Source: an uncultured Clostridiaceae bacterium
Lineage (GTDB): Bacteria; Bacillota; Clostridia; TANB77; CAG-465
Reading direction: 5' to 3'
NCBI GenBank assembly: GCA_947381905.1
Contig: CANCXL010000006.1
Coordinates: forward strand, 448 to 64,447
DNA: 64,000 bases
This document shows positions 3,409-47,778 of the stretch, one piece after another. Numbering within the stretch: the first letter of the stretch is position 1; every line of letters starts with the position of its first letter. The position numbers were made by a program, and so were the translations under genes. The notes below the pieces were generated by a model. The model did no database searches. It saw nothing but the letters and a program-made list of their open reading frames with translations, and was not told the DNA's origin.

Positions 3409-3422
3409 AGAATAAATATTTT

Positions 3423-4442
3423 TTAAACCAATTTATATTTATTATATAACTTACTATTATATTTAATCAAATTATTTTTAGCAAGTCTTCCTACAATAAA
3501 GCTCATTGGTATTTTATATTCTTTAGACTTTTCACATAAATAATCTTCATCAATATTTTTAGATATGTTTATCCATTCATTTTGACTAATCATAGTATTA
3601 ATTGCAAATAAATCTGCTCTTTTTTCTCTTTCATCATCGCCATCTATAATCGTTTTACTTTTTGCCATATTATAATCACTTTTACAATGTCCTAATTCAT
3701 GAAATATTTCAAAGAAAAATGAATCTTTTCCAGAATAATTATCTGTTATATATATAGCTGGTGTATTTAATTTTACTTTGAAGCATCCTCTAACTTTTGT
3801 TCCAGGCAAAGCTTTTTCACATACAAATATTATCCCATATTTATTTAATATTTTGGTTATTCTTTCTATATCAATTCCTTCATTATATGATTCCTCAAGC
3901 AATTCATAAATCAGTTCATTAAATTTTGAGCTGTCATATTTTTCTATACTTTGACTATTACTAATTTCATCGCAATGAGCTATCCATAAAGCTAACTTAT
4001 AATAATTTTCTCCAGACTTTTTAAATAATACAAATTGTTTTATGTCATTTAATACCTTAAAGTTACGGACTTTTAAAAAATTTAATATATCCATAGCATT
4101 TTGATAAACATTTGTCACATCTTTAAACTCAATCCATTTCCTTTTAATAACATTTGTTATATTCATATCTTCATATAATATTTTTTTTAAATCCTTTTCA
4201 CAAGGATACTCTTTTCTAATATTTTCTTCAAGAATTCTTGCTGTCTCAATAGAAATAATAAAAGAAGTTGGTATACCAGTTAAAGTTGCAATGCTAACTG
4301 CCATACACGGAGTTATATTTTTTTTACCTTTTATTAATTCATTCATATGTTTTTGACTAATACCAAGTCTTATAGCAAATTCAGACTGAGATATATTATT
4401 ATCTATCAAATAATCTTTTAAATAATCTCCAAAACAAACCAT
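3423..4442 (-). CDS. XRE-family HTH fused to ImmA/IrrE (COG2856-type) zinc metallopeptidase, HigA-like antitoxin/regulator
   Basis: N-terminal HTH (NISQSEFAIRLGISQKHMNELIKGKK), HEXXH motif FHELGHC, AGGAGG SD lying inside the end of the upstream toxin gene. Confidence 0.8.
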   Translation of the reverse strand: MVCFGDYLKDYLIDNNISQSEFAIRLGISQKHMNELIKGKKNITPCMAVSIATLTGIPTSFIISIETARILEENIRKEYPCEKDLKKILYEDMNITNVIKRKWIEFKDVTNVYQNAMDILNFLKVRNFKVLNDIKQFVLFKKSGENYYKLALWIAHCDEISNSQSIEKYDSSKFNELIYELLEESYNEGIDIERITKILNKYGIIFVCEKALPGTKVRGCFKVKLNTPAIYITDNYSGKDSFFFEIFHELGHCKSDYNMAKSKTIIDGDDEREKRADLFAINTMISQNEWINISKNIDEDYLCEKSKEYKIPMSFIVGRLAKNNLIKYNSKLYNKYKLV

Positions 4443-4455
4443 TCTTCTTTACCTC

Positions 4456-4692
4456 CTATCCTTCACCATAATGCTTATCATCAATACATAAAAACCAAAC
4501 CTCTACTATATCTTTCAATATATATGGATATTTTCCAACTGGTTTAATATATAACCTTAATTTAGAATTTATTCTCGCAGTATATATGTCTTTTAGATTT
4601 CCTTTTTTCTTTTCTAACATATAATGCAAATGTATTGGATTTAACATTACATCTTTTAAGGTTTTAGATTGTTTCAAAAATACTTCCAGCAT
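4456..4692 (-). CDS. RelE/ParE-superfamily (HigB-like) toxin; true start probably upstream at about 4779-4782 on a non-ATG codon
   Basis: ARINSKLRLYI...VWFLCIDDKHYGE resembles the RelE/HigB core. It sits directly upstream of the HTH antitoxin (HigBA gene order). The frame stays open for 29 more codons up to a GAGGTG SD. Confidence 0.6.
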   Translation of the reverse strand: MLEVFLKQSKTLKDVMLNPIHLHYMLEKKKGNLKDIYTARINSKLRLYIKPVGKYPYILKDIVEVWFLCIDDKHYGEG

Positions 4693-4816
4693 TTCTATTT
4701 CCTTAATCTCCTTAAATAAATGCTTATCTAAAATCTTCTTTTTATAGTCTCTAGTGTATTGCTTATTCTTTAGTATAATTATTTAAATCACCTCGCAATA
4801 TCACTATGTTGATTAT

Positions 4817-4846
4817 ATTATAACCTATAAAGTAATAACATGTCAA
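4817..4846 (-). promoter_or_regulatory. sigma-A-type promoter of the toxin-ImmA-SWIM operon
   Basis: Minus-strand TTGACA (4841-4846), 18-nt spacer, TATAAT (4817-4822). Flanked by inverted 8-mers AATATCAC (4797-4804) and GTGATATT (4855-4862). Confidence 0.5.
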
Positions 4847-4888
4847 TAACACGGTGATATTTAGAGTATAAACTTATAATATAAAAAA

Positions 4889-4918
4889 TACAAGAAATTT
4901 TATTTCAAATTTCTTGTA
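4889..4918 (-). terminator. rho-independent terminator after HEPN-like gene 1
   Basis: Stem TACAAGAAATT/AATTTCTTGTA followed by a T-run on the minus strand. Confidence 0.7.
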
Positions 4919-4966
4919 TAATTTTGTACCAATATTCTTAATAAACTTTATGAAAATTGTAATAAG

Positions 4967-6352
4967 CTAAATAATAATATTATTAAAAAAAATCTTAGTA
5001 TGTAAATTATTTATGCTATTTTTTATATGTATTTCATCTAAGCCTAATCTATAAAGTTGCATTACATATATAAATCTACTTAAAAAAACAGCTCCTAAGA
5101 TTCCATCATTTTCTAAATCAATTTGCATATGTCCATGTGCATAGTCATTTCTTAGATCACTTAACTCCTTAAATATATTGTCCCTATTTCTTACATCATT
5201 AAGATTTATAAGATGTTCTAAAATTGGTTTAGCAAAAGTAATAAGCTCGTCATATGCGTATTTTAATTTTCCATCTAAAGTATCTTTGTACATATTTTCT
5301 ATTGTCTTATTAACTATCCTTTTTTGAAGAGAATTACATTCTAATTTCATATTATTAAGTTTGTTTTCTAAATCTCTAAGTTTACTTACTTTGCCAGGCT
5401 TATGCTTTATTCCTTCAGGAAATAATTGATCAAATTCCCACTCAAATGCAGATGTTAAATTTATTACTCTATCTAAAGTAATTTGTTTTGCTTCAATAAT
5501 ATCCTTAGGAATATGTCTTATAAATAATTTCTTGTCTGATATCGCTTGAATAATTTTTTCTTCAATTGGCAAAATATCGTCATGATTAATTATATGTTTA
5601 TAAATATAATCCTCTTCAACTCCATTATTGAGCTTATTCTCTCTTTTATATGTATAATAGAAAGTGCCACAATTATATAATCTGTTGTTTTCATCAAAAG
5701 AATATATAATTATTCTATCATCTAAAATGTTTTGGCGATATGAAATATAAGAATAAAAAATATGTAACTTATTATATATTTTTATTATATCTTTAAAATT
5801 TTCCATTTTGTCTTTTAAAGAATATTTTGCAAATGTATTAAGTGTCAATGGATTTTCATTATTTCTATTTAATTTTCTAGCCACATAATAATAGTACTCT
5901 ATTTCTTTATTATCTATTTTTATCTTTTTTATTTCACTTTTTACATCTCTGAAATTATTTACCTTAATAGATATCTGTTTATCATCATCTAAAGTAATTT
6001 CGTTAAGAGCTTTGTTTGTACTATAAAAAGCATTTAATTCTTTAAATGACATTTCAAATGAATTAATCTCATGTTCTCTGTTGTCTTTAAATTCAATATA
6101 ACCAATTATTTCAAATCTTTCTTTTCCATCTATATAGTCCATTGTATTATTATGAAAAATTATACCTTTATTCCAGTTCGGGAAAAAATTAACATGTAGC
6201 TCTTGTATTTCAGAAATAAACTCATTTTTACAATTAAACTTTTCAAAAATTTTACTTATATTAATTCCACTTGTATTTGAGATTTCAATAACGCCATCTT
6301 CTATTTTAAAAAAATACATCTTTTCATTTAACTTAAAAAAACCAGTTTTCAC
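4967..6352 (-). CDS. HEPN-like (Rx4H) protein with large N-terminal domain; ApeA/Abi-type architecture
   Basis: GTG start with GGTGAT SD. C-terminal helical region carries LRNDYAHGH, with the His 55 aa from the C-terminus. Own terminator. No other recognisable domain. Confidence 0.55.
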   Translation of the reverse strand: MKTGFFKLNEKMYFFKIEDGVIEISNTSGINISKIFEKFNCKNEFISEIQELHVNFFPNWNKGIIFHNNTMDYIDGKERFEIIGYIEFKDNREHEINSFEMSFKELNAFYSTNKALNEITLDDDKQISIKVNNFRDVKSEIKKIKIDNKEIEYYYYVARKLNRNNENPLTLNTFAKYSLKDKMENFKDIIKIYNKLHIFYSYISYRQNILDDRIIIYSFDENNRLYNCGTFYYTYKRENKLNNGVEEDYIYKHIINHDDILPIEEKIIQAISDKKLFIRHIPKDIIEAKQITLDRVINLTSAFEWEFDQLFPEGIKHKPGKVSKLRDLENKLNNMKLECNSLQKRIVNKTIENMYKDTLDGKLKYAYDELITFAKPILEHLINLNDVRNRDNIFKELSDLRNDYAHGHMQIDLENDGILGAVFLSRFIYVMQLYRLGLDEIHIKNSINNLHTKIFFNNIII

Positions 6353-20759: not shown

Positions 20760-22034
20760 TTATATTAGTTCTAATGGTATATAATTATTATTTTTATCTA
20801 TAGGGAACAATTCTGACTTCATGCAAATAACTCCACCATTACCAATTGTTAATCCAAATCTTTCAACAACATTAAAATTTCTAATTGCTTCTTTACCTGG
20901 ATTTGAACTTTTCTTTATCTCTATTGGATATACTGTATTGTTATATATAATAAGTAAATCAATTTCTTTATTATTGTTATCTCTATAATAATATAAATAT
21001 TTCTTTGCATCCATTCCATTATTTGTATATGATTTAATTATTTCTGTTATTACATACGTTTCAAATATTGCACCATTGAAAGCACTTTTCTCTAACGTAA
21101 CTTCATCTAAATATCCTGCCAAATAACAAGCAAGTCCAGTATCCATAAAATATATTTTAGGCTTTTTTACTATTCTAGAAATATTATTATTTGAATATGG
21201 TTGTAATAAATATATTAAACCAGAATTTGCAAGAACAGAAATCCACTTTTCTCCAGTTGCATTAGAAATTCCAACTTCTTTGCAAATATCATTAATATTG
21301 AGTTCTTGACCAGTTCTAACTGCAACATTACTTATAAACTTCATAAATTTAACTTCATCTTGTACTTTAATTAATTGCCTTATATCTCTTTCCATATATG
21401 TTTTTATATATGCCTCAAAAAATTTATTTCTATCTAATAATTCATTTTTATATATTTCTGGATAACTTCCATTTATTATTTTCTTAAAAACATTAATTGT
21501 ATCATATTGAGTAATTTTCTCTTTTTTTTCTAATATTTCTAAATCTGGAAGAAAGAATGACTCTTCTTTTTTCTCACATTCTCTATTACTTAATCCATAT
21601 AAATCAAGTATTCCAACTCTTCCCGCTAAAGATTCATCAACACCTTCCATTATTCTAAAAGCTTGTGAACCAGTTAAATAATACAACCCATTACACTCAA
21701 TATTAGAATCTACTAAATTATCTAGCCTTTTAGAGTCTACTACCGTTTTTATATAAGATAATATATTAGGTGCATATTGAAATTCATCTATAATTAATGG
21801 GGTTTTATATGTTCTAAAAAACAATTCAGGATCTTCTACTGCAAGTATTCTTGAATTCATATCATCTAAAGTTACATAGTTAATTTTATTTTCCATACTA
21901 TTTCCCAATATATTTAAAACTGTTGTTTTTCCAACTTGTCTTGGCCCTGTAAGCATTATTACTGGAAAAGATTTAGACATTTCTATTATTTTCTTTTCTA
22001 TTGTTCTATTAATATATTTATTCATATCTATCAC
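20760..22034 (-). CDS. AAA+ ATPase with C-terminal DUF4143-like region (COG1373 type)
   Basis: Walker A GPRQVGKTT, Walker B LIIDEFQ. Length and C-terminal EIDLLI...PIEIK pattern fit the family. Confidence 0.75.
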   Translation of the reverse strand: MIDMNKYINRTIEKKIIEMSKSFPVIMLTGPRQVGKTTVLNILGNSMENKINYVTLDDMNSRILAVEDPELFFRTYKTPLIIDEFQYAPNILSYIKTVVDSKRLDNLVDSNIECNGLYYLTGSQAFRIMEGVDESLAGRVGILDLYGLSNRECEKKEESFFLPDLEILEKKEKITQYDTINVFKKIINGSYPEIYKNELLDRNKFFEAYIKTYMERDIRQLIKVQDEVKFMKFISNVAVRTGQELNINDICKEVGISNATGEKWISVLANSGLIYLLQPYSNNNISRIVKKPKIYFMDTGLACYLAGYLDEVTLEKSAFNGAIFETYVITEIIKSYTNNGMDAKKYLYYYRDNNNKEIDLLIIYNNTVYPIEIKKSSNPGKEAIRNFNVVERFGLTIGNGGVICMKSELFPIDKNNNYIPLELI

Positions 22035-22147: not shown

Positions 22148-22654
22148 TTAATTAATTATTTTCTTTATAATAAAATTTTTAATTTTTGTTGTAATAATAA
22201 ATAGTATAATACCTGTAATTACTCCACATGTGTCTATCAATACATCAGTGACTTGTCCACTTCTATAAGGTACAAATAATTGATGTATTTCATCACTTGT
22301 TGCATACAATGCACCTATTATTGTCGTATAAATTACTTTTCTTTTTCTAGTTAATTTATATTTGTTTATCATATTGTATATTAATATTCCGCCTAATGTG
22401 TATATAGAAAAGTGTGCAAGTTTTCTTACAAAAGGTTGTAACGCTTCAACTATCATTTCTAAATTTTCATTTGATATATTTTTATCGAAAAAGATTATTA
22501 TTTTTCTAATCGTATTCCCACTTTGTGCTTTTGATGTATCTCCAACCTGGGAGGAAAACCAAAACACAATGGACATCCATAATATAACTATAGCAATATC
22601 TATTATTTTTATTATTATTTCTTTATTGTTATATTTCTTTTTATTATCTTCCAT
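22148..22654 (-). CDS. VanZ-family membrane protein (paralog 2)
   Basis: RKLAHFSIY...DEIHQLFVPYRSGQVTDVLIDTCGV is the same signature as 18399-18980. Confidence 0.8.
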   Translation of the reverse strand: MEDNKKKYNNKEIIIKIIDIAIVILWMSIVFWFSSQVGDTSKAQSGNTIRKIIIFFDKNISNENLEMIVEALQPFVRKLAHFSIYTLGGILIYNMINKYKLTRKRKVIYTTIIGALYATSDEIHQLFVPYRSGQVTDVLIDTCGVITGIILFIITTKIKNFIIKKIIN

Positions 22655-22743
22655 ATTTCCAAATCCTTACTATATTTATATATTATATAGCAATATTTCA
22701 AAAAAATCCATAAAAAAATTGAGCAGAACTACCTGCTCAACAT

Positions 22744-23451
22744 TTATTCATAATATTCTACATCTTTTACTTCAAATTCGTATTTGCCATCATCTGTAGG
22801 ATATACTACTATACTTGTTATTTTTTCTTGTCCCAAATCTAAGTTTTCAATTGTTGTACTGGCACCAGTATTTTTTTCTACAATTGTTGCTTTGTATAAC
22901 GGTTTCTTTGATTCATTCTTTACAAACACAGTTAGTGTATCTTGTTCAACATCTACATATGTTACTTTGTAATATGCATTAACTATGACACCGTTATTAT
23001 TAACATCAGTAACTGGATTAATTGTATGAACACTTCCACCAATACTATGAGAAATTATAATGAATATAATGGTTATCATACACCAGAAAACTATGCATGC
23101 TTTTGCAGCATTTTGCCCCCAAGTATCAACTTTATTGTATTTTTCTCTGTACTTATCTTTCAATCGCTTTTCTTCTTTAATCTGGGCTTGCATTTGTTTT
23201 TGTGCCTTTAAATTCTCATCGTCCTCATCCATTATTTCAGTCTCTAGCTCTCTAGGTATGTAGCCATCACTCTCTCTGCGTTCTTTTTCTAATCTTTGTG
23301 CTTCCTCATCATGTTTTCTAGCCTTTTTTGCATAGTATGCCATAATGCAGCTTGAAATTATAACAATTCCAACAAATATTAGCATAACTGCTAGCCATAA
23401 AACTGTTACATTGTTTGCAACCTCTGTTGCATGAATTATTCCGTTACTCAT
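22744..23451 (-). CDS. hypothetical membrane protein (two TM segments, charged coiled-coil loop, beta-rich C-terminal domain)
   Basis: AAGGAGG SD, own TTGACA/TGGTATAAT promoter (23538-23572 region) and own terminator (22711-22732). Confidence 0.6.
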   Translation of the reverse strand: MSNGIIHATEVANNVTVLWLAVMLIFVGIVIISSCIMAYYAKKARKHDEEAQRLEKERRESDGYIPRELETEIMDEDDENLKAQKQMQAQIKEEKRLKDKYREKYNKVDTWGQNAAKACIVFWCMITIIFIIISHSIGGSVHTINPVTDVNNNGVIVNAYYKVTYVDVEQDTLTVFVKNESKKPLYKATIVEKNTGASTTIENLDLGQEKITSIVVYPTDDGKYEFEVKDVEYYE

Positions 23452-23628
23452 CTCGGAACCTCCTTATAAACTGTTTATACGATATTTATCGTATACTTCT
23501 AAGCAAAATTTCAAGTTTGAAATTTCTTACATATTTTAGAAGCAAGCTCATTATACCACTCGAGTATAATTATGTCAATTATTATTTTACTTTCTGTATA
23601 AAAAATAGAGTGCACTCGCACTCTACAT

Positions 23629-24285
23629 CTATATCATTACATTTTCAGAAATCAAGCTAAATAGAATTGGTTCATCTTCTGTTTCATCTATTAAGTATTT
23701 GACATTGCCATCTTCTATACATAGTTTTGTTTGCTTGTCATCTATATAATAAGTATATTCTATCTTTACATCTGGATACATTTGAGATAACTTCATAAAC
23801 AATAATACTGGTGCTTTATCAAAAGTAGTAAATTCAATAGTATTCTTCTTAACTTGAGGATTATATGCTCCACTACCTGTTCCCCATAATGCATCTCTTA
23901 CCATATATCCATTAAAAATAGCTTTACTTTTTATCTTATTTATAAAATTTTCTGCATCTTTAATTAACATACTAGTCTGATATTTTGCTCTAGCACTGCA
24001 CAATTCTTTTTTCTCTAAAACTTTAAATTTATATGGAAATTGTCTTGTAATACCAACAAATTCAAAAGTCTTAATTAAATCTTGTTTTTTCTCTGGATGT
24101 TGTTCTATATATATGTTACAACAAAGATTCATATAGTAATCTAAACTTAGGTCGTCTTTGTCCTCATCCATAGGTATTATTTTTGAAAAATCTATTGCTG
24201 ATTTTTCACTCCTTAATTTTTTTAAAACTCCTTTAACTGAGTTATCTTTTCCTATTAAATTAATTTGATTTTTAATAATTATCAT
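23629..24285 (-). CDS. hypothetical protein, DUF1281/Api92-like pattern (weak)
   Basis: DFSKIIPMDED and RDALWGTGSGAYN...FTTFDKAPVLLFMKLSQMYPDVKIEYTY resemble the family pattern FdFnkIIPMPeeL ... NWGTKWda ... F.TAW.pP. Recalled from memory, not searched. Confidence 0.45.
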   Translation of the reverse strand: MIIIKNQINLIGKDNSVKGVLKKLRSEKSAIDFSKIIPMDEDKDDLSLDYYMNLCCNIYIEQHPEKKQDLIKTFEFVGITRQFPYKFKVLEKKELCSARAKYQTSMLIKDAENFINKIKSKAIFNGYMVRDALWGTGSGAYNPQVKKNTIEFTTFDKAPVLLFMKLSQMYPDVKIEYTYYIDDKQTKLCIEDGNVKYLIDETEDEPILFSLISENVMI

Positions 24286-24354
24286 AATAATTATTCATCC
24301 TTTCCTTTTTAATTCCTATGTACACCTAAAAATACAACTATCAAACTATTATAC

Positions 24355-24430
24355 TCACCTCCAAATTATTAGTTGTGTTAGATTTTTTTAAATGTTTAAT
24401 TATTATACCATGCTTATAAGGTTATGTCAA
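24355..24430 (-). promoter_or_regulatory. promoter-leader cassette copy 1 (TTGACATAA-N-TGGTATAAT plus conserved leader ending in AATAATTTGGAGGTGA)
   Basis: -35 at 24425-24430, -10 at 24402-24407, SD-like GGAGGTGA at 24355-24362, about 70 nt upstream of the real start codon. Confidence 0.7.
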
Positions 24431-24480
24431 CTTTTGTAATAAAATTAAAGACCTTGAAATAAATCAAGGTCTTATTTATT

Positions 24481-24924
24481 TTAATTAAAACAACGAGTTA
24501 TAGAATACTTACACGATCTAAATCTATCTGATACTCTTGTTTCTTTGGATAATTTTCCTTTTCTATAAAAATCTGTATTTATTACTGACTTATCCCCATT
24601 TTCCACAAGATATCTTGATTCTGCATCAAATTTATATCCTCTAACTAGATGTAATAGTAACTTTTTAATTTTTTCATCTGAATAAATGATATATATTTCT
24701 GATGAATTAGGTTTTGCATAAATTAATTTTTTATTTAAGTCTAATCTTGATACTTTCCAGTTACTATCTACAAATGTTGTAGATACATTTGTCATATCTT
24801 TTGGACATTTTACTGAAATAACATTTACTCCTTTATCTTTTACTTCCTTTAAAAATCTCTCAATTACGATTCCTTCAGCTTTAATATATAAAACGTTAGT
24901 TAACTTTTTTGATATCTTTGTCAT
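24481..24924 (-). CDS. hypothetical protein (147 aa)
   Basis: GAAGGGAG SD, own promoter cassette and own terminator (24449-24474). No recognisable motif. Confidence 0.55.
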   Translation of the reverse strand: MTKISKKLTNVLYIKAEGIVIERFLKEVKDKGVNVISVKCPKDMTNVSTTFVDSNWKVSRLDLNKKLIYAKPNSSEIYIIYSDEKIKKLLLHLVRGYKFDAESRYLVENGDKSVINTDFYRKGKLSKETRVSDRFRSCKYSITRCFN

Positions 24925-24992
24925 AAATTAATGACTCCCTTCTTAAAAATTATTTTTTTTGTAAAAGAATAAATTTAATTTTAGAACTTACT

Positions 24993-25067
24993 CACCTCCA
25001 AATTATTTTTGCGTGTTAAAATTTAATAATGTTTGCATATTATATCACTTGTTTATAATTATGTCAA
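24993..25067 (-). promoter_or_regulatory. promoter-leader cassette copy 2
   Basis: -35 at 25062-25067, -10 at 25039-25044 (TGATATAAT), SD-like GGAGGTGA ending at 24993-24999. Same spacing as copies 1 and 3. Confidence 0.7.
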
Positions 25068-25115
25068 CACTTTATTTTGATTTATCTAGTATCAGTAAAA
25101 ATAAAAAAAGAGAGA

Positions 25116-25499
25116 TTATTTCGTCTCTACAAATTTTAGTTCTACAATCTCAAACTGAACATCTTCAAATTTAGTATTTGAATTAAAATATAATTTAGTT
25201 GATTTACCAGGCCTTAGTTTATGAAATGTATCTGTAATTTGGGAATTCTTTTCTCTTACCACAAGAGTTCCTATCATCTTATCTGTTTTATTTTCTATCT
25301 GTAAGAAAACCTCCTGATTCATAAATACATGATATACCTGCTCATACTGTGTAAGTTCAAATCCATCTTTTGCTATATTATACTTACGATTAATTCTTAT
25401 ACCGTTAGTTAGTAATACAATTACCACCGTTGCAACAATAAATTCAATTAAAAAAACAACAAATAAGTAAACAACAAGCTTGTCTAAATTACTTTTCAA
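25116..25499 (-). CDS. hypothetical single-pass membrane protein with beta-rich C-terminal domain
   Basis: N-terminal TM segment LVVYLFVVFLIEFIVATVVIVLL, AGGAGG SD, own TTGACA/TATAAT promoter. Confidence 0.55.
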   Translation of the reverse strand: MKSNLDKLVVYLFVVFLIEFIVATVVIVLLTNGIRINRKYNIAKDGFELTQYEQVYHVFMNQEVFLQIENKTDKMIGTLVVREKNSQITDTFHKLRPGKSTKLYFNSNTKFEDVQFEIVELKFVETK

Positions 25500-25709
25500 T
25501 ATAGCCTCCTTCTAGAAGAAATATTTTTTCTCTAGATGTAACATATAAATTTATATGTTATTTCTCCATTTATTTTCTCAAACATTATATCACTTTCTAT
25601 TTTTTATGTCAATTAATATGTTTTTTATAATTACTTAAATATAAAAAGAGTTTAGAAATATATTCTAAACTCTTTATCTTTGATCTATTATTAATGTTAT
25701 AATTATGAA

Positions 25710-27188
25710 CTAATTATCATTAACAGAATCACTTTCTGGATTTACACCAGTAAGATTAACATTTCTTGTTGTTTTTCCTTCAAATGTGTCAGCCTTAATG
25801 ATTTCATTTAAATCAATTCCTGTTGCTTCTTTAACAGATTCAATTACTTTAGCCATTACAATAGGAACGTTTCCAGCCATATCTGCTACACCATTTGAAT
25901 TACCACCAATAACTGTAACCTTATCTATTGACGAGATAGGCTCTGCAATATTTTTAGCCATTTCTGGAAGAATATTAAATGCCATCTCAAGAATAGCAGC
26001 TTCTCCATATTTTTTCATAGCTTCTGCTTTTTTATCTATTGCTTCTGCCTCTGCTATACCTTTTGCACGAATTGCAGCTGCTTCTGCTTGACCTTTTGCT
26101 TCAATTGCTTTTGCTTCTTGCTCTTGTGCATATTTATCTGCATCTGCCTTTTTCATTAAAGCCTCTGCTTCAAGTTCAGCTTCAACTTTCTTTGCTTCTG
26201 CATCTTTTGTCCTAATGTATAGCTTAGCATCTGCTTCTTGTTGTTCTTTAAACTTTTCAGCCTCTGCCTTTTTCTTTATTTCAGCTTCTAGAGATTGCTC
26301 CATGACTTTAACTTCTCGTTCTTTAAGTTCAACTTCACGTTCCCTTTTGGCAATCTCTGCATTAGTAGACGCAGTTTCAATTGTTTTTCTTTGCTCTTGT
26401 TTTTGAATTTCAAAAGCAGCATCAGCTTCAGCAGCTTTAGTATCTGCAGCTTTTTTTAACTCAGATTTTCTAATATCTAGTTCATTCTTTTTTTGCGCAA
26501 TTTCTAAATCCGCTTTAACACGTGCTTCGTTTGCTTCTTTATCTGCTTCGGCCTGTTTTATAGCAACATCTCTATCTGCTTCTGCTTTTGCAATAGCTGC
26601 ATCTTTACGAATTTTAGCAGTATTATCCATCCCCATGTTTTTAATAAGATCACTCTCATCTTCAACATTTTGAATGTTACATGAAATAATTTCAATACCT
26701 AAATTTTTCATGTCAACAGAAGCTTTTTGCTGTACCTGATTACCAAATTCTTCTCTATTATTACAAATATCTCTTAAAGAAATTGTTCCAACAATCTCAC
26801 GCATATTTCCTTGTAGAGAGTCTTGTAAATCTTCAATGATATCTTTTGAATCTTTATTTAAAAAGTTCTTCATAGCTCTTTCTAGAAGATCTGGCTCTGT
26901 ACTAACTCTTACTTTAGCTACAGCATCCACTTGAATGTTAATAAAATCTAGTGTTGGTATATACCCATCAGTTTTAATATCTACAGTAACTTGTTTTAAT
27001 GATAATTTGTCTATTCTTTCAAGAAACGGAATTCTAATTCCAGCACGTCCAATTAAGATACGTGGTTGTTTCTTAAATCCAGATATAATATATGCTGTAT
27101 CTGGTGGTGCTTTAACATAGCCTTTCACAATTATAAGTAATAATAACGCTACTGCAACTACGCCAATTCCAATATAAACATAAATCAT
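25710..27188 (-). CDS. flotillin-like SPFH/Band-7 protein (FloT/YuaG type)
   Basis: N-terminal TM segment, SPFH domain, then a long Ala/Glu/Lys coiled-coil (AEAD...KAEAE repeats) and C-terminal flotillin-type tail. Confidence 0.9.
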   Translation of the reverse strand: MIYVYIGIGVVAVALLLLIIVKGYVKAPPDTAYIISGFKKQPRILIGRAGIRIPFLERIDKLSLKQVTVDIKTDGYIPTLDFINIQVDAVAKVRVSTEPDLLERAMKNFLNKDSKDIIEDLQDSLQGNMREIVGTISLRDICNNREEFGNQVQQKASVDMKNLGIEIISCNIQNVEDESDLIKNMGMDNTAKIRKDAAIAKAEADRDVAIKQAEADKEANEARVKADLEIAQKKNELDIRKSELKKAADTKAAEADAAFEIQKQEQRKTIETASTNAEIAKREREVELKEREVKVMEQSLEAEIKKKAEAEKFKEQQEADAKLYIRTKDAEAKKVEAELEAEALMKKADADKYAQEQEAKAIEAKGQAEAAAIRAKGIAEAEAIDKKAEAMKKYGEAAILEMAFNILPEMAKNIAEPISSIDKVTVIGGNSNGVADMAGNVPIVMAKVIESVKEATGIDLNEIIKADTFEGKTTRNVNLTGVNPESDSVNDN

Positions 27189-27247
27189 AACATATACCTC
27201 TTTCTTTCTAAAATTTTACATTTAATAACAACTTATTACAATAATTC

Positions 27248-27322
27248 ACCTCCCAAATTATTAGAAGTTGTTAAATATTTTAAATGCTTAGAAATTATAC
27301 CACCCTTTTATGTTTATGTCAA
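27248..27322 (-). promoter_or_regulatory. promoter-leader cassette copy 3 (drives flotillin)
   Basis: -35 at 27317-27322, -10 at 27294-27299 (TGGTATAAT), SD-like GGGAGGTGA at 27248-27255. Confidence 0.7.
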
Positions 27323-27358
27323 CTTTAATGTGTAAAAAAATAAAGGTTGTTAAAACCT

Positions 27359-28312
27359 TTATTCTCCATAATAATATTTATTAAAATCTTCTTTTGCTCT
27401 ATCCATATCAAATTGGAAATAATATATGCCATAAATCATACTATCATAACCATAGTCTGTTGATGGAATTTGAACTGAGTTTATTTTCTTTAAATACTCA
27501 TTTCTATCTGCTGCAACTTCCATAAACATATCTTTATATTTATTAATATCCATATTTGTAGTTATATTTACCAATATATCGTCACTTATACTTAATATTT
27601 CATTAACGTCCTTTTTAGATATCTTATTCATTAAAGATATAAGTATAGATCTTTGTCTATATGCTCTTGTAAAATCATTACCAACATATCTATTTCTAGA
27701 GTGTGTTAATGCTTGTATTCCATTTAAGTTTATAGTTCCAGGTCCTGCAATCTTATTTTCTGCGGTAACTCTTTGATTAATAAAGTTTACCTCATCTTGA
27801 TCTAATGTTACCTCAACTCCACCAACTCTATCTATTGATGCAATAAGCCCAGAAAAATCTATAGTCATATACTGAGTTAAATTAAGTCCAAAATTTGAAT
27901 TGATTGTTTTCAAACTTAATTGTTCTTGTCCATACGCATATGCGTGATTTATTTTAGTCATGCCATAATCTGGGACATTTACATATGTATCTCTTGGTAT
28001 ACTAATTAAGTTTATTTCTTTTGTATCATTATTTATTACTACAATTATAATTGTATCTGATCTTCCAGCATATGCATTTTCTGTATCTCTTGAGTCGCTT
28101 CCAAATATAACAAATCTTGTATATTTTTCTACATCTACATGTTTTTGAGCAATTGTTTGAACCTCTATTCCTAAATCTTGTTCATCTACTGGCTTGTATG
28201 TCATTTTATCAAATTTAGATTTTACATATATATATCCTGCAAGTACACATCCTATTATAATCATGAGTATTACAGTTATTATAATAATAATTATCTTTAT
28301 AGATTTTTTCAT
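27359..28312 (-). CDS. LytR-CpsA-Psr (LCP) family glycopolymer transferase
   Basis: N-terminal TM anchor, FGSDSR...RSDTIIIV...ISIPRDTYV motifs. Confidence 0.9.
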   Translation of the reverse strand: MKKSIKIIIIIITVILMIIIGCVLAGYIYVKSKFDKMTYKPVDEQDLGIEVQTIAQKHVDVEKYTRFVIFGSDSRDTENAYAGRSDTIIIVVINNDTKEINLISIPRDTYVNVPDYGMTKINHAYAYGQEQLSLKTINSNFGLNLTQYMTIDFSGLIASIDRVGGVEVTLDQDEVNFINQRVTAENKIAGPGTINLNGIQALTHSRNRYVGNDFTRAYRQRSILISLMNKISKKDVNEILSISDDILVNITTNMDINKYKDMFMEVAADRNEYLKKINSVQIPSTDYGYDSMIYGIYYFQFDMDRAKEDFNKYYYGE

Positions 28313-31973: not shown

Positions 31974-32063
31974 TGGCGGAGAGTGAGGGGTTCGAACCCT
32001 CGCGCCCGTTGCCAGACCTAACAGTTTAGCAAACTGTCCCCTTCACCACTTGGGTAACTCTCC
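31974..32063 (-). tRNA. tRNA-Ser (anticodon GCT), CCA encoded
   Basis: Reverse complement GGAGAGTTACCCAAGTGG...CAGTTTGCTAAACTG...long variable arm...GAGGGTTCGAACCCCTC...CCGCCA. Own TTGACT/TATAAT promoter at 32086-32114. Confidence 0.9.
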
Positions 32064-32923: not shown

Positions 32924-33012
32924 TGGCGGATGAGGTAGGATTCGAACCCACGGTGCCTTTCGACATCACCAGTTTTCAAGACTGGCTCCTTAAACCACTC
33001 GGACACTCATCC
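32924..33012 (-). tRNA. tRNA-Ser (anticodon TGA), CCA encoded
   Basis: Reverse complement GGATGAGTGTCCGAGTGG...CCAGTCTTGAAAACTGG...variable arm...GTGGGTTCGAATCCTAC...CCGCCA. Promoter TTGACA (33053-33058) / TGATATAAT (33031-33036). Confidence 0.9.
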
Positions 33013-33073
33013 ATTAATGATACGTTTATTATTATATCACTAAATTTTATTTTGTCAATACCTTGCTTAAAAT

Positions 33074-42263: not shown

Positions 42264-42926
42264 TTATCTATATTGATATTTTCTTTTAATAACAACTCTT
42301 CTTCTAGGCTCTTCACCAATAGATTCAGTTTCAACATCTTTTCTATCAGCAAGCTCTCTATGTATTATTAGTCTTTCATAAGCTGACATTGGCTCAAGTC
42401 TAATTGGTCTTCTAAATTTAACACAATTTGCTGCCATTTTATTAGCTAGTTTTCTAAGTTTTTCTTCTTTTTTCTTTTTATAATCATTAATTTCTACAAA
42501 TACTTTAGCGTATTCTTCATCTTCTCTTTGAAGAATAGAATTAAGTAATGATTGAAAAGCCTCAATTGTCTTACCTTTATATCCAATTAAATGAGCAACA
42601 TCATCACCTGTAATAGTAAGATTCATTTGATTTCCATTCTTTTCTACTGTGTAGTTAATAGTTTCGCCAGTAATATCAAACATATCTTTTAATACTTCTT
42701 CTAGTTTTGTCTTTGTCTTTTCTGCTACTTCGTCACTTACTTTTTTATCTACTGTAAGCCTTACTTTTGCAAGTTTAGCAGAAAGAATTCCTAAAACGCC
42801 GCCATTTGAAGGTTCTTCTAAAACTTCAATTTTAACATCGTCTCTTGATACTTTTAATTCTTCTAAACCTTTTCTAATAGCTTCTTCTACTGTTTTTCCA
42901 ATTTGTTCAGTAACTTTTTTAGTCAT
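42264..42926 (-). CDS. jag: Jag/KhpB RNA-binding protein (KH + R3H domains)
   Basis: LIGYKGKTIEAFQ (KH) and ERLIIHRELA (R3H). Located after yidC. Confidence 0.9.
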   Translation of the reverse strand: MTKKVTEQIGKTVEEAIRKGLEELKVSRDDVKIEVLEEPSNGGVLGILSAKLAKVRLTVDKKVSDEVAEKTKTKLEEVLKDMFDITGETINYTVEKNGNQMNLTITGDDVAHLIGYKGKTIEAFQSLLNSILQREDEEYAKVFVEINDYKKKKEEKLRKLANKMAANCVKFRRPIRLEPMSAYERLIIHRELADRKDVETESIGEEPRRRVVIKRKYQYR

Positions 42927-43812
42927 TATTATCACCCTTTCCTAGGAATAATGTTTTATCTTTTTTAATATCTTTTTTATTTTCATCTTTTTCTTCCATT
43001 AATTTATCCATAATAAATTGTTGACCAATACCTAAAATACTTCCAAATAGCCAGTATACACCAAGTGCTAAAGGCCATGCAAATGCGATATATGCTGAAA
43101 GTATAGGCATCATAATATTCATGGATTTTTGCATTTCAAGTTGATCTTCAGACATTGTTTTCTTGCTTTTTTTCATAGTAATATGATTGCTTAATAATGA
43201 GAAGAAAAGTGTAAGAACTGGTATAGCTAATGACCATTTACTTACTTTTTTAGATTCATCTTTAGAAAATACATCTTTTGGTGTATCTCCAAGATTAATC
43301 TTATCTCCTACATTCATGTCTAATAATCCATATTCCTTGGCAATATTTATTTCATATTGTTTAGCTGTTTTAAAATCTAATGTACTAGGGTCTATCGTAT
43401 TTTCTTCAGTAGTAAAGTACTCTGCTGTATAGTTAATTATATCCTGTTGTGACATTTGATTTATATATGTTAAAGGTTGTTTTACAACCCAAAACATAGC
43501 TAAAATAAGTGGAATCTGAATTATTGGTAATAAACAACCAGCCATCGGATTAATTTTATTTTCTGCGTATAATTTGCTTATTTCTTCATTAAGTTTTACT
43601 GGATTATCCTTATATTTTTCTCTAAGTTTCTTGTCCTCTGGCGCAATTTTTTGAATACCTGCTGATGATTTTAATTGTTTTAGCATTAATGGGAAAAGTA
43701 ATAACTTTGTAAGCAAGGTAAATATTAAAAGTGCTACAAGATAGTTATTTCCAACTAAATTATAGATAATTCTAATAATACCTCCTAACAAACTTGAAAT
43801 AAAGTCAATCAT
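42919..43812 (-). CDS. yidC: membrane protein insertase YidC/SpoIIIJ
   Basis: Polytopic, conserved GCLP.IIQIPI segment, synteny. Confidence 0.9.
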   Translation of the reverse strand: MIDFISSLLGGIIRIIYNLVGNNYLVALLIFTLLTKLLLFPLMLKQLKSSAGIQKIAPEDKKLREKYKDNPVKLNEEISKLYAENKINPMAGCLLPIIQIPLILAMFWVVKQPLTYINQMSQQDIINYTAEYFTTEENTIDPSTLDFKTAKQYEINIAKEYGLLDMNVGDKINLGDTPKDVFSKDESKKVSKWSLAIPVLTLFFSLLSNHITMKKSKKTMSEDQLEMQKSMNIMMPILSAYIAFAWPLALGVYWLFGSILGIGQQFIMDKLMEEKDENKKDIKKDKTLFLGKGDNND

Positions 43813-43828
43813 TAATATCCCCCATTCG

Positions 43829-44071
43829 TTACTTTAGTAAATCCACTCCACCTTTTGAAAATGGATTACATTTAAGTATTCTTATTATACCTAATAAACT
43901 CCCTTTAATTATACCATATTTGTCAACTGCTTGCCTAGTATATTCAGAGCAAGTCGGATAATATTTACAATGACTGCCAATCCTTGGAGATATCGCTACT
44001 TGATAAAACCTAATCAAACGTATAAGTCCTCGTCTTGGCAATAGTATAATTTTATTAATAAATTTCTTCAT
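43829..44071 (-). CDS. yidD: membrane protein insertion efficiency factor YidD
   Basis: YQ..ISP....[10 protein letters not shown] motif. Confidence 0.9.
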
Positions 44072-44423
44072 ATAAATTCAACTCCTCAAAGCATTTAATT
44101 ATGTCATCTTTAATTATATGGAAATTTACTTCTTTAGCAATAGTATCTTTTTTATATATAATTATATAATTATATCCCATTTTTAGTTTTTCTTCCTCTT
44201 GTTTATATACCTCACGAGCATATCTTTTAAGCCTATTTCTCTCTACACTATTGCCATTTTTCTTAGATACACATACTGCAAAAAAATTAGTACTATCCCC
44301 ATTTTCTACAGCAAATTTAGTCTTACAAGAATGTACCACTATATATTTTCCTTTAGAATACTCACCTTTTTTAAAAATATACTTAAATACTCTATTATCT
44401 TTAATTCTTAATGTATATTTCAT
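44055..44423 (-). CDS. rnpA: ribonuclease P protein component
   Basis: [18 protein letters not shown] (RNR motif), synteny with rpmH. Confidence 0.9.
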
Positions 44424-44443
44424 TTAAATCATCCTTATCATTT

Positions 44444-44472
44444 AAAAAAAGTGGATACATTGCATATCCACT
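44444..44472 (-). terminator. hairpin + T7 between rpmH and rnpA (attenuator/terminator)
   Basis: Stem AGTGGATA/TATCCACT followed by T7 on the minus strand. Confidence 0.6.
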
Positions 44473-44483
44473 TACATATTTAA

Positions 44484-44618
44484 TTAAGCACAAAGTACTT
44501 TTCTTCCTTTTGCTCTTCTAGCTTTTAATACGTTTCTTCCTGAAGAAGTTGACATTCTTTTTCTAAATCCGTGTACTTTTTGTGTTTGTCTTGTTTTTGG
44601 TTGATATGTTCTTTTCAT
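44484..44618 (-). CDS. rpmH: 50S ribosomal protein L34
   Basis: Translation [54 protein letters not shown]. Below the ORF-track cut-off. Confidence 0.95.
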
Positions 44619-44819
44619 GTTACTACACCTCCTAAACAATGTATATATATTAAATAATTTTCAACTCAAAAAAATAAATGCTAATTAGTTAATAAATTAG
44701 TCATTTAAACATTTGTATAAGTGAGACAATTATACACCATGATCTATACTTTGTCAACCCCTAATATAATAAAATACAGTTACATAATATAGCGTGAAAA
44801 CTTACAATATAAAAAAAAG

Positions 44820-45710
44820 TTATCCACAGTTTTTATGTATATTTGTAAATTACAAATTTGACCATCTTTTACTATTATTTTTTTTATTTGCCTGTGGATA
44901 ACTTTAAATAACCTAATAAATTATATTAAATTTATATGAAAAACTACATAAAAAAGTAAGTTATCCACAGTTTTTATGTAAATTAAAATATCGTATAATT
45001 AATATTGAAAAAAATTTTGCGCAATCAAAAATTACTATAAAAGTTTTCACACAATAAAATGCTTTAAATTCAGTAATAGCAAGGCTTTTAAGATTACATA
45101 TTTTTTATAAAAATAATAAAAGTTTTCACAGTTATCCACAGTTTTTATGGAAATTTATACATAATAAAATAGTATAAAAATAAAGTTATCCACAGGGGGT
45201 GTGGATAAAACTGTGGATAACTTTTATAAAATTATCAGTGTTTCATTTTTTTTAGTTGTAAATCACATATAACTGTGGATAGTTTTTAATATCAGTGCTT
45301 CTAATATATTTAGATTTACGTAATAATGATTTTCTAAATTTTCTGTGAAAACTTTATTTTGCGCAATCGACATAAAATATAAAAAAATAGCAAAATAAAT
45401 TGTATATTACAACTAATGAAATATGCCATTTGAATAGGGTTTCAAAGGTTATCCACACATTTTTGACACAATTATTACAAAAAAGTTGCAAAACAGTTAA
45501 AATCTGCAAGTTTAAAAGTTATCCACAGGTAAACTGTGGATAACTTGTGGATAACTATGTGATAGAATTGTGAAAATGGAAATTGTCGAAAAAGTTATCC
45601 ACAGGGGGTGTGGATAACTTAGCTAGTTATCCACAGTTTTATCCACAGGCAAGACACCCTTCAAAGTACTGAAAATACTGGATTTTTAAAAGTTATCCAC
45701 ATTATCCACA
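44820..45710. repeat. DnaA-box cluster
   Basis: TTATCCACA starts at 44820, 44961, 45132, 45186, 45449, 45519, 45595, 45627, 45639, 45693 and 45702. TGTGGATAA starts at 44893, 45200, 45212, 45535, 45546 and 45609 (plus 45921 outside the cluster). Confidence 0.9.
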
Positions 45711-46076
45711 GGCCTAATAATAACAATAATATATAATAAATAATAACTTAATATTTTTATATACGCGTACGCGCGCGTGAGAAACCCTATAAAAAATTGG
45801 TTTACATTTTTCCAAAAAAATATAAATTAATAAAAGTTTTTTTAGTTAAAAAATAAAATAAAAAAATACAAAATTATTTTTTATTTTATCTACATAATTC
45901 ACAAATTAAATTGTTTAAAATGTGGATAACAAAAATTAAAGATAAAATTGAAATCAATATATTTACAAATAATTTCTAATTTAAAGAAAAATATAATTAT
46001 TTTTATAATTTAGTTATACACATAATTCACTTAATAAATTGTTGATAATGTTTATAACTTTAAAATATTTTTATAA

Positions 46077-46115
46077 TGATATTTAAAATAATAATTTAAA
46101 ATAATAATTTAAAAT
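46077..46115. repeat. AT-rich 13-mer tandem repeat (candidate DNA unwinding element)
   Basis: AATAATTTAAAAT x2 perfect (46090-46102, 46103-46115) plus a partial copy upstream. Confidence 0.5.
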
Positions 46116-46281
46116 ATTAATTCAATTTATATAAATATACTAATTATTTTTATTAGAAAATTTTTTTAATGTGTAAAATGGGGATAATTAAGTATATTTA
46201 AAAATTTTGTTATTGATTTTTTAAATTAATTTTATTATAATAAAGACAGATTAAACGGAATTAATTTTAAAGGAGGGAAAT

Positions 46282-47694
46282 ATGGAAGATAATTTTATGA
46301 ATGTTTGGGAAAAAGCAGTAGATATATTAAAAGATGAAGTTTCACCAATTGCAATGAAAACATATATTGAAGTTATAGTACCAAGACTTATAAATAAAAA
46401 TACAGTTTGTCTACTATGTCCTTCTAGTTATTATGTAGATACAATAAAGCATCGTTTTGTTGAATTAATTAGAAATGCATTAAATTATTTAACAAGTGTA
46501 GATTATGAAATAGTTTTTGAAGTAAAGACTACTGTTCCAGAAAATGAAATAACAGATATTGATGATGTAGAAATCATTAGAGGACAGTTTGGGGATGTAG
46601 AGAGCTTAGATGGAAAAGAAAAATTAAATCCTATATTAGATATAGAAAAAATTCGTGAGAATGCAGGACTTAATAAAAGATATACTTTTGATAATTTTAT
46701 AATTGGAAATAATAATAGATTTGCTCAAGCAACAGCTTATTCTATAAAAGATAATTTAGGGTTAACTAATCCTTTATATATTTATGGAGGTGTTGGTCTT
46801 GGAAAAACACATCTTATGCAAGCAATAGGTAACGCTGTAATTGACGAGGATCCCTCTAAAAAGGTTTTTTATTGCTCAGGGAAGGATTTTGTTGAGGAAC
46901 TTGTAAATGACATTTTAAATAGCAAAAAGGACGATTTAAATACTAACTTTAAAAATAAATATAGAAATTTAGATTTGTTACTTATTGATGATGTTCAAAT
47001 TATTGCTGGAAAGCAAAAAAGTCAAGAAGAATTTTTCCATACATTTAATGCTTTATGTGAAAGTGGAAAACAAATTGTTTTAACATCAGAAAGACCTCCA
47101 AAAGAAATAAATGGATTAGAAGATAGATTAAAAACAAGATTTTCTATGGGAGTAAGTGTAGATATTCAAACACCAGATTATGAAACAAGACTTGCAATAT
47201 TAAAAAAGAAAGCAGCAGAAGAAAGATATGTTATATCTGATGATATATTAATTAAAGTTGCAACTAAGGTTAAATCTAATGTAAGAGAGCTTGAGGGAGT
47301 ATTTAATAAACTTATGGCTTATACAAAATTTACAAATAATCCTTTAACTGATCCAGTAGTAGACAATGTTATAGAATCAATACTTGTAAAAAATAGTAAC
47401 GTTTTATCTAGTACATTAGTTATGCAAGTTGTTGCTAAATTTTTTGATTTACCTGTAACAGATTTAACAAGTGATAAAAGATCAACAAAAATTGCATATC
47501 CAAGACAAATTGCAATGTATCTATGTAGAGAGGTAGCAGATATGTCTTTTCCAGCTATAGGAAAAGATTTTGGTGGAAGAGATCATTCTACAGTATTACA
47601 TGCATATTCTAAAATACAAGATGAGTATGAGAACAATCCAGACACAAAAGATTTAATAGATGATATTAAAAAGACTTTAGAAAGAGAAGGTTAA
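46282..47694 (+). CDS. dnaA: chromosomal replication initiator DnaA
   Basis: Walker A GGVGLGKTHL, LLIDDVQ, C-terminal box-binding SFPAIGKDFGGRDHSTVLHA. Confidence 0.98.
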   Translation: MEDNFMNVWEKAVDILKDEVSPIAMKTYIEVIVPRLINKNTVCLLCPSSYYVDTIKHRFVELIRNALNYLTSVDYEIVFEVKTTVPENEITDIDDVEIIRGQFGDVESLDGKEKLNPILDIEKIRENAGLNKRYTFDNFIIGNNNRFAQATAYSIKDNLGLTNPLYIYGGVGLGKTHLMQAIGNAVIDEDPSKKVFYCSGKDFVEELVNDILNSKKDDLNTNFKNKYRNLDLLLIDDVQIIAGKQKSQEEFFHTFNALCESGKQIVLTSERPPKEINGLEDRLKTRFSMGVSVDIQTPDYETRLAILKKKAAEERYVISDDILIKVATKVKSNVRELEGVFNKLMAYTKFTNNPLTDPVVDNVIESILVKNSNVLSSTLVMQVVAKFFDLPVTDLTSDKRSTKIAYPRQIAMYLCREVADMSFPAIGKDFGGRDHSTVLHAYSKIQDEYENNPDTKDLIDDIKKTLEREG

Positions 47695-47778
47695 TTTTTC
47701 TATACTATTGATTTTTAAGATTTAATTTATTATAATAGAAAAATAAATATAAACGGTTTAAGAAAAGGGGAAAAGTAA

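Follow-up and report, generated by a model that had tools for sequence, protein, structure and literature searches.

What is a strong Shine-Dalgarno (SD)-like sequence doing in a messenger RNA (mRNA) leader when no gene starts behind it and the real start codon lies more than 50 nucleotides (nt) further on? The question is raised by a 64,000-nt stretch of DNA (the window; contig CANCXL010000006.1 of assembly GCA_947381905.1) from an uncultured Clostridiaceae bacterium, in which five head-to-tail genes on the minus strand (22744–27322) encode a flotillin and proteins of 127, 147, 218 and 235 amino acids (aa). The flotillin, 147-aa and 218-aa genes share a promoter–leader cassette that carries such an orphan element. 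This leader family is real, conserved and previously uncatalogued, and its most likely mode of action is that of known 5′ stabilisers in Firmicutes. In its full form, the reading that we prefer from sequence and analogy, and to which we give an even chance, is that a strong promoter and a 5′ mRNA stabiliser are joined in the cassette, and that the stabiliser would combine a sequestered 5′ end with a 30S decoy of the STAB-SD kind.

The cassette and its orphan SD-like element

Each of the five genes is preceded by a perfect promoter, matching TTGACA-17-TATAAT at 12/12 positions and carrying the extended −10 TG, of the form TTGACATAA-N11-TGnTATAAT on the minus strand. These promoters lie at 27294–27322 for flotillin (TTGACATAA-N11-TGG-TATAAT), 25584–25612 for the 127-aa gene, 25039–25067 for the 147-aa gene, 24402–24430 for the 218-aa gene and 23550–23578 for the 235-aa gene. 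Seven such perfect sites occur in the whole window against 0.03 expected by chance, and the perfect TTGACATAA promoter is kept at each cluster gene in each lineage.

Behind three of these promoters, the flotillin, 147-aa and 218-aa leaders have in common TATAAT-N31-AATAATTT-GG(G)AGGTGA, which bears out the homology, and the shared SD-like element, that a first-pass annotation of this DNA had described; the leader behind the 127-aa promoter lacks the cassette. The 14–15-mer TAATTTGG(N)AGGTGA is present in three copies (24355–68, 24992–25005 and 27246–60) against 0.00 expected, and the three leaders form a 74-nt direct-repeat family with 62–77% ungapped identity. Counted from the inferred start sites, the leaders are 78–110 nt long, rather than the 90–115 nt first given. 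The flotillin leader spans 27189–27287 (minus strand, as for all leader features below), with its start site inferred at G27287, 7 nt past the −10; the 147-aa leader spans 24925–25032, and the 218-aa leader 24286–24395, with a predicted start site at A24395. In the flotillin leader, AAUAAUUU and the orphan SD-like GGGAGGUGA occupy 27246–27262 with a probability of being unpaired of 0.99. The corresponding AAUAAUUU and GGAGGUGA lie at 24992–25007 in the 147-aa leader and at 24355–24370 in the 218-aa leader, where they fall within a block of 23 nt without variation among 13 orthologous leaders. By promoter geometry, the SD-like element sits at +31 to +37 from the predicted start site; a 5′ end made by processing might lie next to it. 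In most cases the element exceeds the SD of the gene itself in length.

A census of the window showed how unusual these elements are. Of 43 GGAGG sequences, 17 are real ribosome-binding sites (RBSs), and nearly all others lie inside reading frames. Only four non-RBS copies were counted in intergenic DNA, namely the three cassette copies and the RBS of the 44-aa rpmH gene, which is below the length threshold of the census. The three cassette copies are thus the only intergenic GGAGG in 64 kb without a gene behind. The element contains a contiguous match of 7–10 nt to AGAAAGGAGGUGAUC, the complement of the Firmicute-type 16S ribosomal RNA (rRNA) 3′ end, in 32 of the 33 distinct leaders tabulated; the 16S type is assumed here, as the window holds no rRNA gene. 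The exception is the 147-aa leader of locus L067, with a degenerate GAGGG core only. Between the SD-like core and the start codon lie 51–106 nt, depending on the lineage. The 218-aa genes have short SDs of their own (GAAAGGA), 9–16 nt from the AUG, and the flotillin gene in the window has AAAGAGG. Two kinds of divergence bear on the partner of the element. In the flotillin leader of locus L080, AGAAGGUGA, a weakened form of the first element, is directly followed by a new AAGGAG, and in diverged 147-aa leaders the flanks are altered and the GGAGG or GAGG core is retained. At the sequence level, this is the pattern expected from selection for pairing with the anti-SD.

The first-pass annotation had also stated that no start codon lies behind the element. 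This is correct for the 147-aa and 218-aa leaders of the window, which have no start codon at a usable spacing, but not for the flotillin leader, in which a UUG-UAA start-stop (TTG-TAA in DNA; 27236–27241) begins 7 nt past GGAGG; its orthologues lack it. Across the 33 tabulated leaders, a start codon is found 4–10 nt behind the element in about ten, none of them a 218-aa leader. The resulting mini open reading frames (ORFs) have 1–8 codons and keep neither frame nor sequence, and no conserved upstream ORF or leader peptide was found in this set.

One locus outside the orthologous series carries related signals. At L054 2894–2965, in a metagenome-assembled genome (MAG) of a rabbit-gut member of the Clostridia, the same TTGACATAA promoter is followed by the same AATAATTTGGAGGTGA, which serves there as the genuine RBS of a 67-aa ORF with its ATG 5 nt behind. 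This arrangement may hint at the origin of the decoy.

Helices P1 and P2 and the conservation of the leaders

The 5′-terminal ~10 nt predicted for the 218-aa and flotillin mRNAs (RCAUUUAAAA) are complementary to UUUUARRUG, some 60 nt further along, and form with it an outer helix, P1. This 3′ partner directly follows the 3′ arm of an inner stem, P2 (ACAACU/AGUUGU), which encloses the exposed SD-like element. P1 is newly described here, whereas P2 corresponds to the enclosing stems of the first-pass annotation, ACAACTA/TAGTTGT and AACAACTT/AAGTTGTT, both of which we recovered in place. In the flotillin leader, the arms of P1 are GCAUUUAA (27280–27287, the predicted first 8 nt of the mRNA) and UUAAAUGU (27218–27225), and those of P2 are AACAACUU (27265–27272; DNA AACAACTT) and AAGUUGUU (27227–27234; DNA AAGTTGTT). 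In the 218-aa leader, P1 is formed by ACAUUUAAAAA (24385–24395) and UUUUUAGGUGU (24322–24332), and P2 by ACAACUA (24370–24376) and UAGUUGU (24334–24340). P1 begins at inferred nt 1–2 in both leaders, which is not so in the 147-aa leader.

The duplex energy of the first 11 nt with the downstream leader was better than that of dinucleotide shuffles in all 18 leaders of the 218-aa and flotillin types (p = 0.000–0.078), with the P1 duplex at the same relative position in every one. In the same test, none of the 15 leaders of the 147-aa type showed pairing of the 5′ end. P1 was contained in the minimum free energy (MFE) or centroid structure in 13 of 14 single-sequence folds, and the z-scores of the folds were all negative, although individually modest (−0.8 to −3.5, mostly −0.8 to −2.3). 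When a covariance model of P1 and P2 (R1) was run with filters off against the whole window, it returned two matches only, the 218-aa leader (24320–24395, 76.2 bits) and the flotillin leader (27216–27287, 64.7 bits). A fold common to all three leaders was therefore rejected, since the 147-aa leader, which has the cassette sequence without P1 and P2, scored 17 bits, at noise level.

The base-pairing pattern was examined in 19 distinct sequences. We used a covariance-model-based alignment (A4), because in two MAFFT alignments (A1 and A2) neither the 3′ arms nor the P2 arm of flotillin were kept in register. In A4, 92.9% of the P1 and P2 cells were in standard pairs, compared with 34.6–45.5% when the 3′ partners were slid by 1–3 columns. 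Seven of the ten P1 pairs vary one-sidedly, from A-U to G.U, and at two pairs of P2 both partners have changed in a compensatory way (ACAACU/AGUUGU versus UUAACU/AGUUAA); the covariation score of P1 and P2 was reached by no shuffle. Within the window species, a single-nucleotide polymorphism (A to G; L002/L003) turns an A-U pair of flotillin P2 into G.U. Variation of the G.U type fits a sense-strand RNA rather than a DNA palindrome. When whole leaders were folded with the partition function, the probability of being unpaired was 0.60 and 0.81 for the SD-like core, compared with 0.46 on average over the leader, and the first 8 nt were mostly paired (0.28 unpaired), the 147-aa leaders showing the opposite (0.51 and 0.66). 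The GGAGG core of the flotillin leader is placed in a 5-nt apical loop.

The first-pass annotation had made its proposal depend on whether the cassette recurs elsewhere and is kept at orthologous loci. The proposal withstands this test, as the cassette lies upstream of the same three gene families in loci L014, L033, L057, L067, L070/78, L072/81, L073, L075, L076, L080 and L082–85, which represent about ten related lineages of uncultured Clostridia, and the window species itself recurs, its gene order unchanged, in many metagenome assemblies of the gut type (L001–L010). Exact-pattern scans of genome and metagenome collections returned mostly chance matches, that is, genuine RBSs behind a TATAAT, and eight true cassettes, all in uncultured Clostridia (L014, L033, L057, L067, L070, L072, L073 and L075). 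The genome-collection scan gave 48 loci, of which only L014, L033 and L057 were true, the rest being ordinary RBSs behind a chance TATAAT; its pattern did not retrieve the source species and missed UUUAGGAGG variants. In the metagenome scan, 5 of 17 loci were true cassettes. Loci L076–L085 are orthologous loci reached through homologues of the 218-aa protein.

A profile search of all fetched DNA detected full cassettes only upstream of flotillin, 147-aa and 218-aa orthologues, with none in the flanks of up to ~10 kb of the fetched loci or in the rest of the window. This restriction to the cluster rests on the 64-kb window, flanks of at most ~10 kb and exact-pattern scans of whole lineage genomes. 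A 111-nt cassette had no match in phage and plasmid collections (blastn, distant mode). In the comparison with Rfam that the first-pass annotation had proposed, no family matches the leaders: the whole window yielded two transfer RNAs (tRNAs) only at gathering thresholds, and 22600–27400 gave only chance eukaryotic matches at E ≤ 10, none of them on the leaders.

Each of the three leader types is conserved across the lineages, and the triplication therefore predates them. The degree of conservation can be read against the surrounding sequence. Proteins at the orthologous loci are 25–83% identical (at the more distant of these, 25–57% for the 147-aa and 218-aa proteins), third codon positions 41–72%, and 18 promoter-spacer and discriminator positions 28–78%, with fractions of ~0.3–0.56 except in the closest relative. 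The 23-nt block, by comparison, is invariant in 13 leaders of the 218-aa type (DNA ACACAACTAATAATTT..GGAGGTG, RNA ACACAACUAAUAAUUU..GGAGGUG), and the core (C/A)(T/A)AATAATTT-N0-2-GGAGGTG is kept in all three leader types. For these statements we used invariant alignment columns, as an ungapped identity measure ("core24") is distorted by a 1-nt G/A insertion. Conservation sets in near the inferred +1: the spacer and positions 30–34 (the first five of the discriminator) are variable, position 35 is A in ~90%, and RCATTT directly after it is conserved.

The gene cluster and its surroundings

The flotillin gene (25710–27188; this gene and the four below on the minus strand) encodes a FloT-like protein of 492 aa with Band_7 and Flot domains in profile searches. 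The 127-aa (25116–25499) and 235-aa (22744–23451) genes encode membrane proteins, whose C-terminal beta domains had been noted as weakly similar; BLASTP agrees that the domain is common to both (E = 0.002, 27% identity over 97 aa). The start codon of the 127-aa gene is UUG. The 147-aa protein (24481–24924) is of unknown function, and its structure model, mediocre in quality, has a generic ferredoxin-like fold for which a fold search gave only generic matches of the ferredoxin-like kind (E > 0.1). The 218-aa protein (23629–24285) belongs to a tiny family, with 17 homologues in 5.8 billion clusters. Pfam and NCBIfam profiles gave nothing significant for the four small proteins, this one included, and a profile search of the 218-aa protein against PDB sequences gave no match. 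The sole significant Foldseek match of its AlphaFold2 model (predicted local distance difference test score 73) was PDB 2ijr (Api92, DUF1281), with E = 1.8e-4 and low template modelling scores (0.35/0.28). The earlier label "DUF1281-like" thus finds no echo in sequence profiles, and the model offers a hint only, at the level of the fold. Paralogy of the 147-aa and 218-aa proteins was considered and rejected (BLASTP E = 1.9).

The first-pass annotation assigned each gene its own promoter and terminator. All five promoters hold, and terminator-like hairpins follow four of the genes, at 25645–25675 (flotillin), 24448–24473 (147-aa), 23605–23626 (218-aa) and 22718–22741 (235-aa), all on the minus strand. 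Behind the 127-aa gene, we read from the sequence only a weak 5-bp hairpin (AGAGA/UCUCU) with a T7 run overlapping the stop codon (25102–25130, minus strand); in the relatives L033 and L057 this hairpin has 7 bp.

The two remaining leaders of the cluster have structures of their own. The 127-aa leader (25500–25577) contains two near-perfect palindromic hairpins, UAACAUAUAAAUUUAUAUGUUA and UCUAGA..UCUAGA, the latter abutting the real SD AGGAGG. The 235-aa leader (23452–23543) has a 5′-terminal helix, GCUUCUAA/UUAGAAGU, around an inner hairpin; among relatives including L082 and L084 this helix shows compensatory changes, AAAUUUCAA/UUGAAAUUU versus AAACUUCAA/UUGAAGUUU and, as a second set, CUUCUA/UAGAAG versus CUUUCA/UGGAAG. 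In some lineages its 3′ arm is SD-like (GAGGAG).

Gene content varies at some orthologous loci. In the lineage of L078, L079 and L081 (and L070 and L072), flotillin is absent at this position, and in L078 and L079 an uncharacterised 327-aa protein takes its place. In this lineage, the leader of the 218-aa type has an extra inner hairpin with compensatory changes (AUAAU/AUUAU versus AUAUUAU/AUAAUAU), and an extra 222-aa gene without a cassette of its own follows the 225-aa gene. In L033 (Clostridia MAG BRZ_EH__bin69), the flotillin gene is interrupted at 2806–5438 by a group II intron with a reverse transcriptase/HNH ORF (Rfam matches RF02004 at 2806–3008 and RF00029 at 5354–5438). The flotillin frame is split in two in several metagenome assemblies of the window species or related ones, L002 (7099–8577), L003 (7097–8576) and L080 (7611–9090), where frameshifts, assembly errors or real pseudogenes may be involved.

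The cluster lies ~17–22 kb from the replication origin, and its genes are oriented with replication; both fit high expression without proving it. The origin region (42919–48897) comprises yidC (42919–43812), a yidD-like gene (43829–44071), rnpA (44055–44423) and rpmH (44484–44639) on the minus strand and, after a 1.6-kb gap, dnaA (46282–47694) and dnaN (47779–48897) on the plus strand, with a change in the sign of the GC skew at ~44–48 kb. Two tRNA genes (31977–32063 and 32927–33012, minus strand) stand behind a perfect extended −10 promoter at 33031–33058, one of only two in the window outside the cluster. The flanks of the cluster (window 20760–22034 and downstream in L001–L010) contain genes for LytR-CpsA-Psr, VanZ, a DUF4143 AAA ATPase, DUF3800 and a small RelA/SpoT-type synthetase, and a strain-variable, capsule-like glycosyltransferase cluster is nearby.

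Possible functions and comparison with known systems

In the reading that we prefer, with promoter and 5′ stabiliser combined, a strong constitutive sigma-A-type promoter would start transcription at the conserved purine 7 nt past the −10, and P1 would keep the 5′ end of the 218-aa and flotillin mRNAs from being single-stranded. A 5′ end paired in P1 would therefore be a poor substrate for 5′-end-dependent decay, which in Firmicutes involves RppH, the exonuclease RNase J1 and RNase Y. Inside P1, P2 would present a largely unpaired loop with AAUAAUUU and then the 7–10-nt complement of the 16S 3′ end, followed by no start codon. A 30S subunit would dock there as a second roadblock, as at the STAB-SD of cry3A, and the real, weaker SD and start codon, 51–106 nt further on, would serve initiation in the usual way. 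Since the 147-aa leader has the promoter, the +1 motif and the decoy without P1 and P2, only the decoy would act there. Stabilised mRNAs and high, co-ordinate expression of the cluster would be the expected outcome. As for the STAB-SD type proposed in the first-pass annotation, the anti-SD complementarity, the lack of a conserved ORF and the predicted accessibility of the element speak for it, whereas the fold is present in only two of the three leaders.

Several observations weigh against the stabiliser. The decoy lies ~32 nt from the inferred 5′ end, whereas those of cry3A and inlA are at or next to it, and a docked 30S subunit would overlap P2, so that the two protections may not be simultaneous. 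The invariant AU-rich 10-mer CUAAUAAUUU before the SD-like core is unexplained by anti-SD pairing, and the remainder of the 23-nt block also exceeds what such pairing needs. The cassette is found in this gene cluster only, which fits specific regulation at least equally well. The helices are A/U-rich and weak (MFE −8.6 to −14.8 kcal/mol), the variation in P1 is mostly one-sided and comes from related sequences, and the covariance-model-based alignment used for the pair counts leans towards the model, for which slid controls were added. It is because of the distance of the decoy and its overlap with P2, the unexplained CUAAUAAUUU and the apparent restriction to the cluster that we go no further than an even chance, and the same three points favour a dedicated regulator.

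Such a regulator, a specific RNA-binding protein or small RNA, would co-ordinate the flotillin, 147-aa and 218-aa genes through a dedicated cis-regulatory RNA, with the SD-like core as part of a longer recognition sequence; it could be a CsrA-like protein reading the loop GGA, or a factor encoded in or near the cluster. We regard this as possible, well short of an even chance. The invariance of the whole 23-nt block, with an AU-rich 10-mer outside the anti-SD pairing, the presence of the cassette at these three gene families only, at every locus and for every collection match, and the CsrA-like presentation of the flotillin core in a 5-nt apical loop are all in line with it, as is the GGA that 218-aa leaders carry at their real SD too. 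Against this, we identified no candidate regulator, the real SD of the window flotillin (AAAGAGG) lacks GGA, so that a two-site CsrA clamp does not suit every one of the three leaders, and the way in which the GGAGG/GAGG core outlasts its flanks in diverged 147-aa leaders points to the anti-SD as the conserved partner. Nor was an expression platform of the riboswitch or attenuator kind found: the leaders contain no terminator-like site, and no helix that would mask the real SD is conserved in the folds. Put more boldly, and as a tentative proposal, the cassette would define an undescribed cis-regulatory RNA family of a flotillin-centred module, whose partner reads the CUAAUAAUUU-GGAGGUGA loop, might compete with the 30S subunit and switches the three genes together. 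If so, the flotillin, 147-aa and Api92-like 218-aa genes would make up one post-transcriptional regulon with a flotillin-related function, within a clade of uncultured gut Clostridia of very high AT content.

It is unlikely that the upstream SD serves 30S subunits as a standby or loading site, raising translation rather than stability, with P1 and P2 bringing it near the real start. The short genuine SDs of the 218-aa genes, the stronger and accessible upstream element and the end of the P1 3′ arm, only 25–40 nt before the start codon, would suit such a site, but the distance from core to start varies widely between lineages, the element is within a loop and not at a helix base beside the AUG as in a split RBS, and flotillin and many 147-aa genes own adequate SDs. 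Still less probable is a DNA operator at +17 to +41, where a repressor or roadblock protein would tame three otherwise maximal promoters. With perfect-consensus promoters in every species, control elsewhere is plausible, and the invariance of the block is typical of protein–DNA sites. The block, however, has no clear dyad or direct-repeat symmetry as read from the sequence, its conservation begins near the inferred +1 and is of a strand-specific kind (G.U-compatible and compensatory pairs), and its core is identical to the anti-SD complement and, in L080, moves or doubles in the manner of an SD. The least probable reading, that the element drives a tiny upstream ORF or start-stop which regulates the downstream gene or holds a 70S ribosome, could draw on the UUG-UAA of the window flotillin leader and on AUG-UAA or AUG-CUA-UAG 5 nt past the element in the 147-aa leaders of L033, L076 and L085, but we rejected it as a general explanation because the ORFs described above are not conserved across leaders, and a coding use of the RUG in the P1 3′ arm fails likewise, as it opens ORFs in frames that differ between species.

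To our knowledge, orphan SD stabilisers come from a handful of studied genes (cry3A, Listeria inlA), and conserved, structured, paralogous ones are hardly catalogued; we know of none in Rfam. With more than 30 natural variants in which a decoy SD, a 5′-end-sequestering helix and a perfect consensus promoter travel together, the present series is a compact test bed for the combination of two stabiliser determinants in Firmicutes, and the cassette might find use as an expression part in AT-rich Clostridia. Flotillin is also linked, by shared and unusual expression signals that persist across lineages, to four small proteins of unknown function, two of them membrane proteins with a shared beta domain and two with, according to models, an Api92-like and a ferredoxin-like fold, which provides a lead to flotillin partners.

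The cassette can be compared with four kinds of known 5′ elements. It resembles start-stop and mini-ORF elements in that some copies have a start and then a stop codon at the correct spacing, and differs from them in that these are conserved neither across orthologues nor among the three paralogous leaders. CsrA sites consist of a loop-exposed GGA purine motif and a second one at the real SD, as in B. subtilis hag. The cassette leaders likewise have a GGA purine motif in a loop and a second purine motif at the real SD; unlike CsrA-bound leaders, their motif extends to a 9–10-nt anti-SD complement, and GGA at the real SD is found in the 218-aa and 147-aa leaders but not in that of flotillin. 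No csrA gene was seen in the sequence available. As in the B. subtilis aprE leader, ermC and the E. coli ompA 5′ untranslated region (UTR), the first nucleotides of the transcript would be paired, and ribosome binding in the leader would contribute. Here, in contrast, P1 is a long-range helix closing a domain of ~70 nt rather than a local hairpin, the ribosome-binding element would be a decoy and not the gene's own RBS, and the 147-aa leader does without the helix. A review names the two determinants as 5′ occlusion and a strong SD (PMC3997798).

The closest parallel is the STAB-SD of Bacillus thuringiensis cry3A, together with the SD mimics in the leaders of Listeria inlA, inlC and uhpT; shared with the cassette is an SD-like 5′ UTR sequence far upstream of the real start that is complementary to the 16S rRNA 3′ end and has no coding start. 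The STAB-SD of cry3A binds 30S subunits and blocks RNase J1 (PMC4113751), and SD mimics have been proposed in the inlA leader of Listeria (PMC5449094). The known elements are thought to hold a 30S subunit and so to block 5′-to-3′ decay, a role that in the cassette is predicted from sequence. The cassette element differs from them in its position ~32 nt from the inferred 5′ end, in the two-helix domain around it and the invariant AU-rich 10-mer before it, and in its occurrence as three paralogous copies, each joined to the same consensus promoter.

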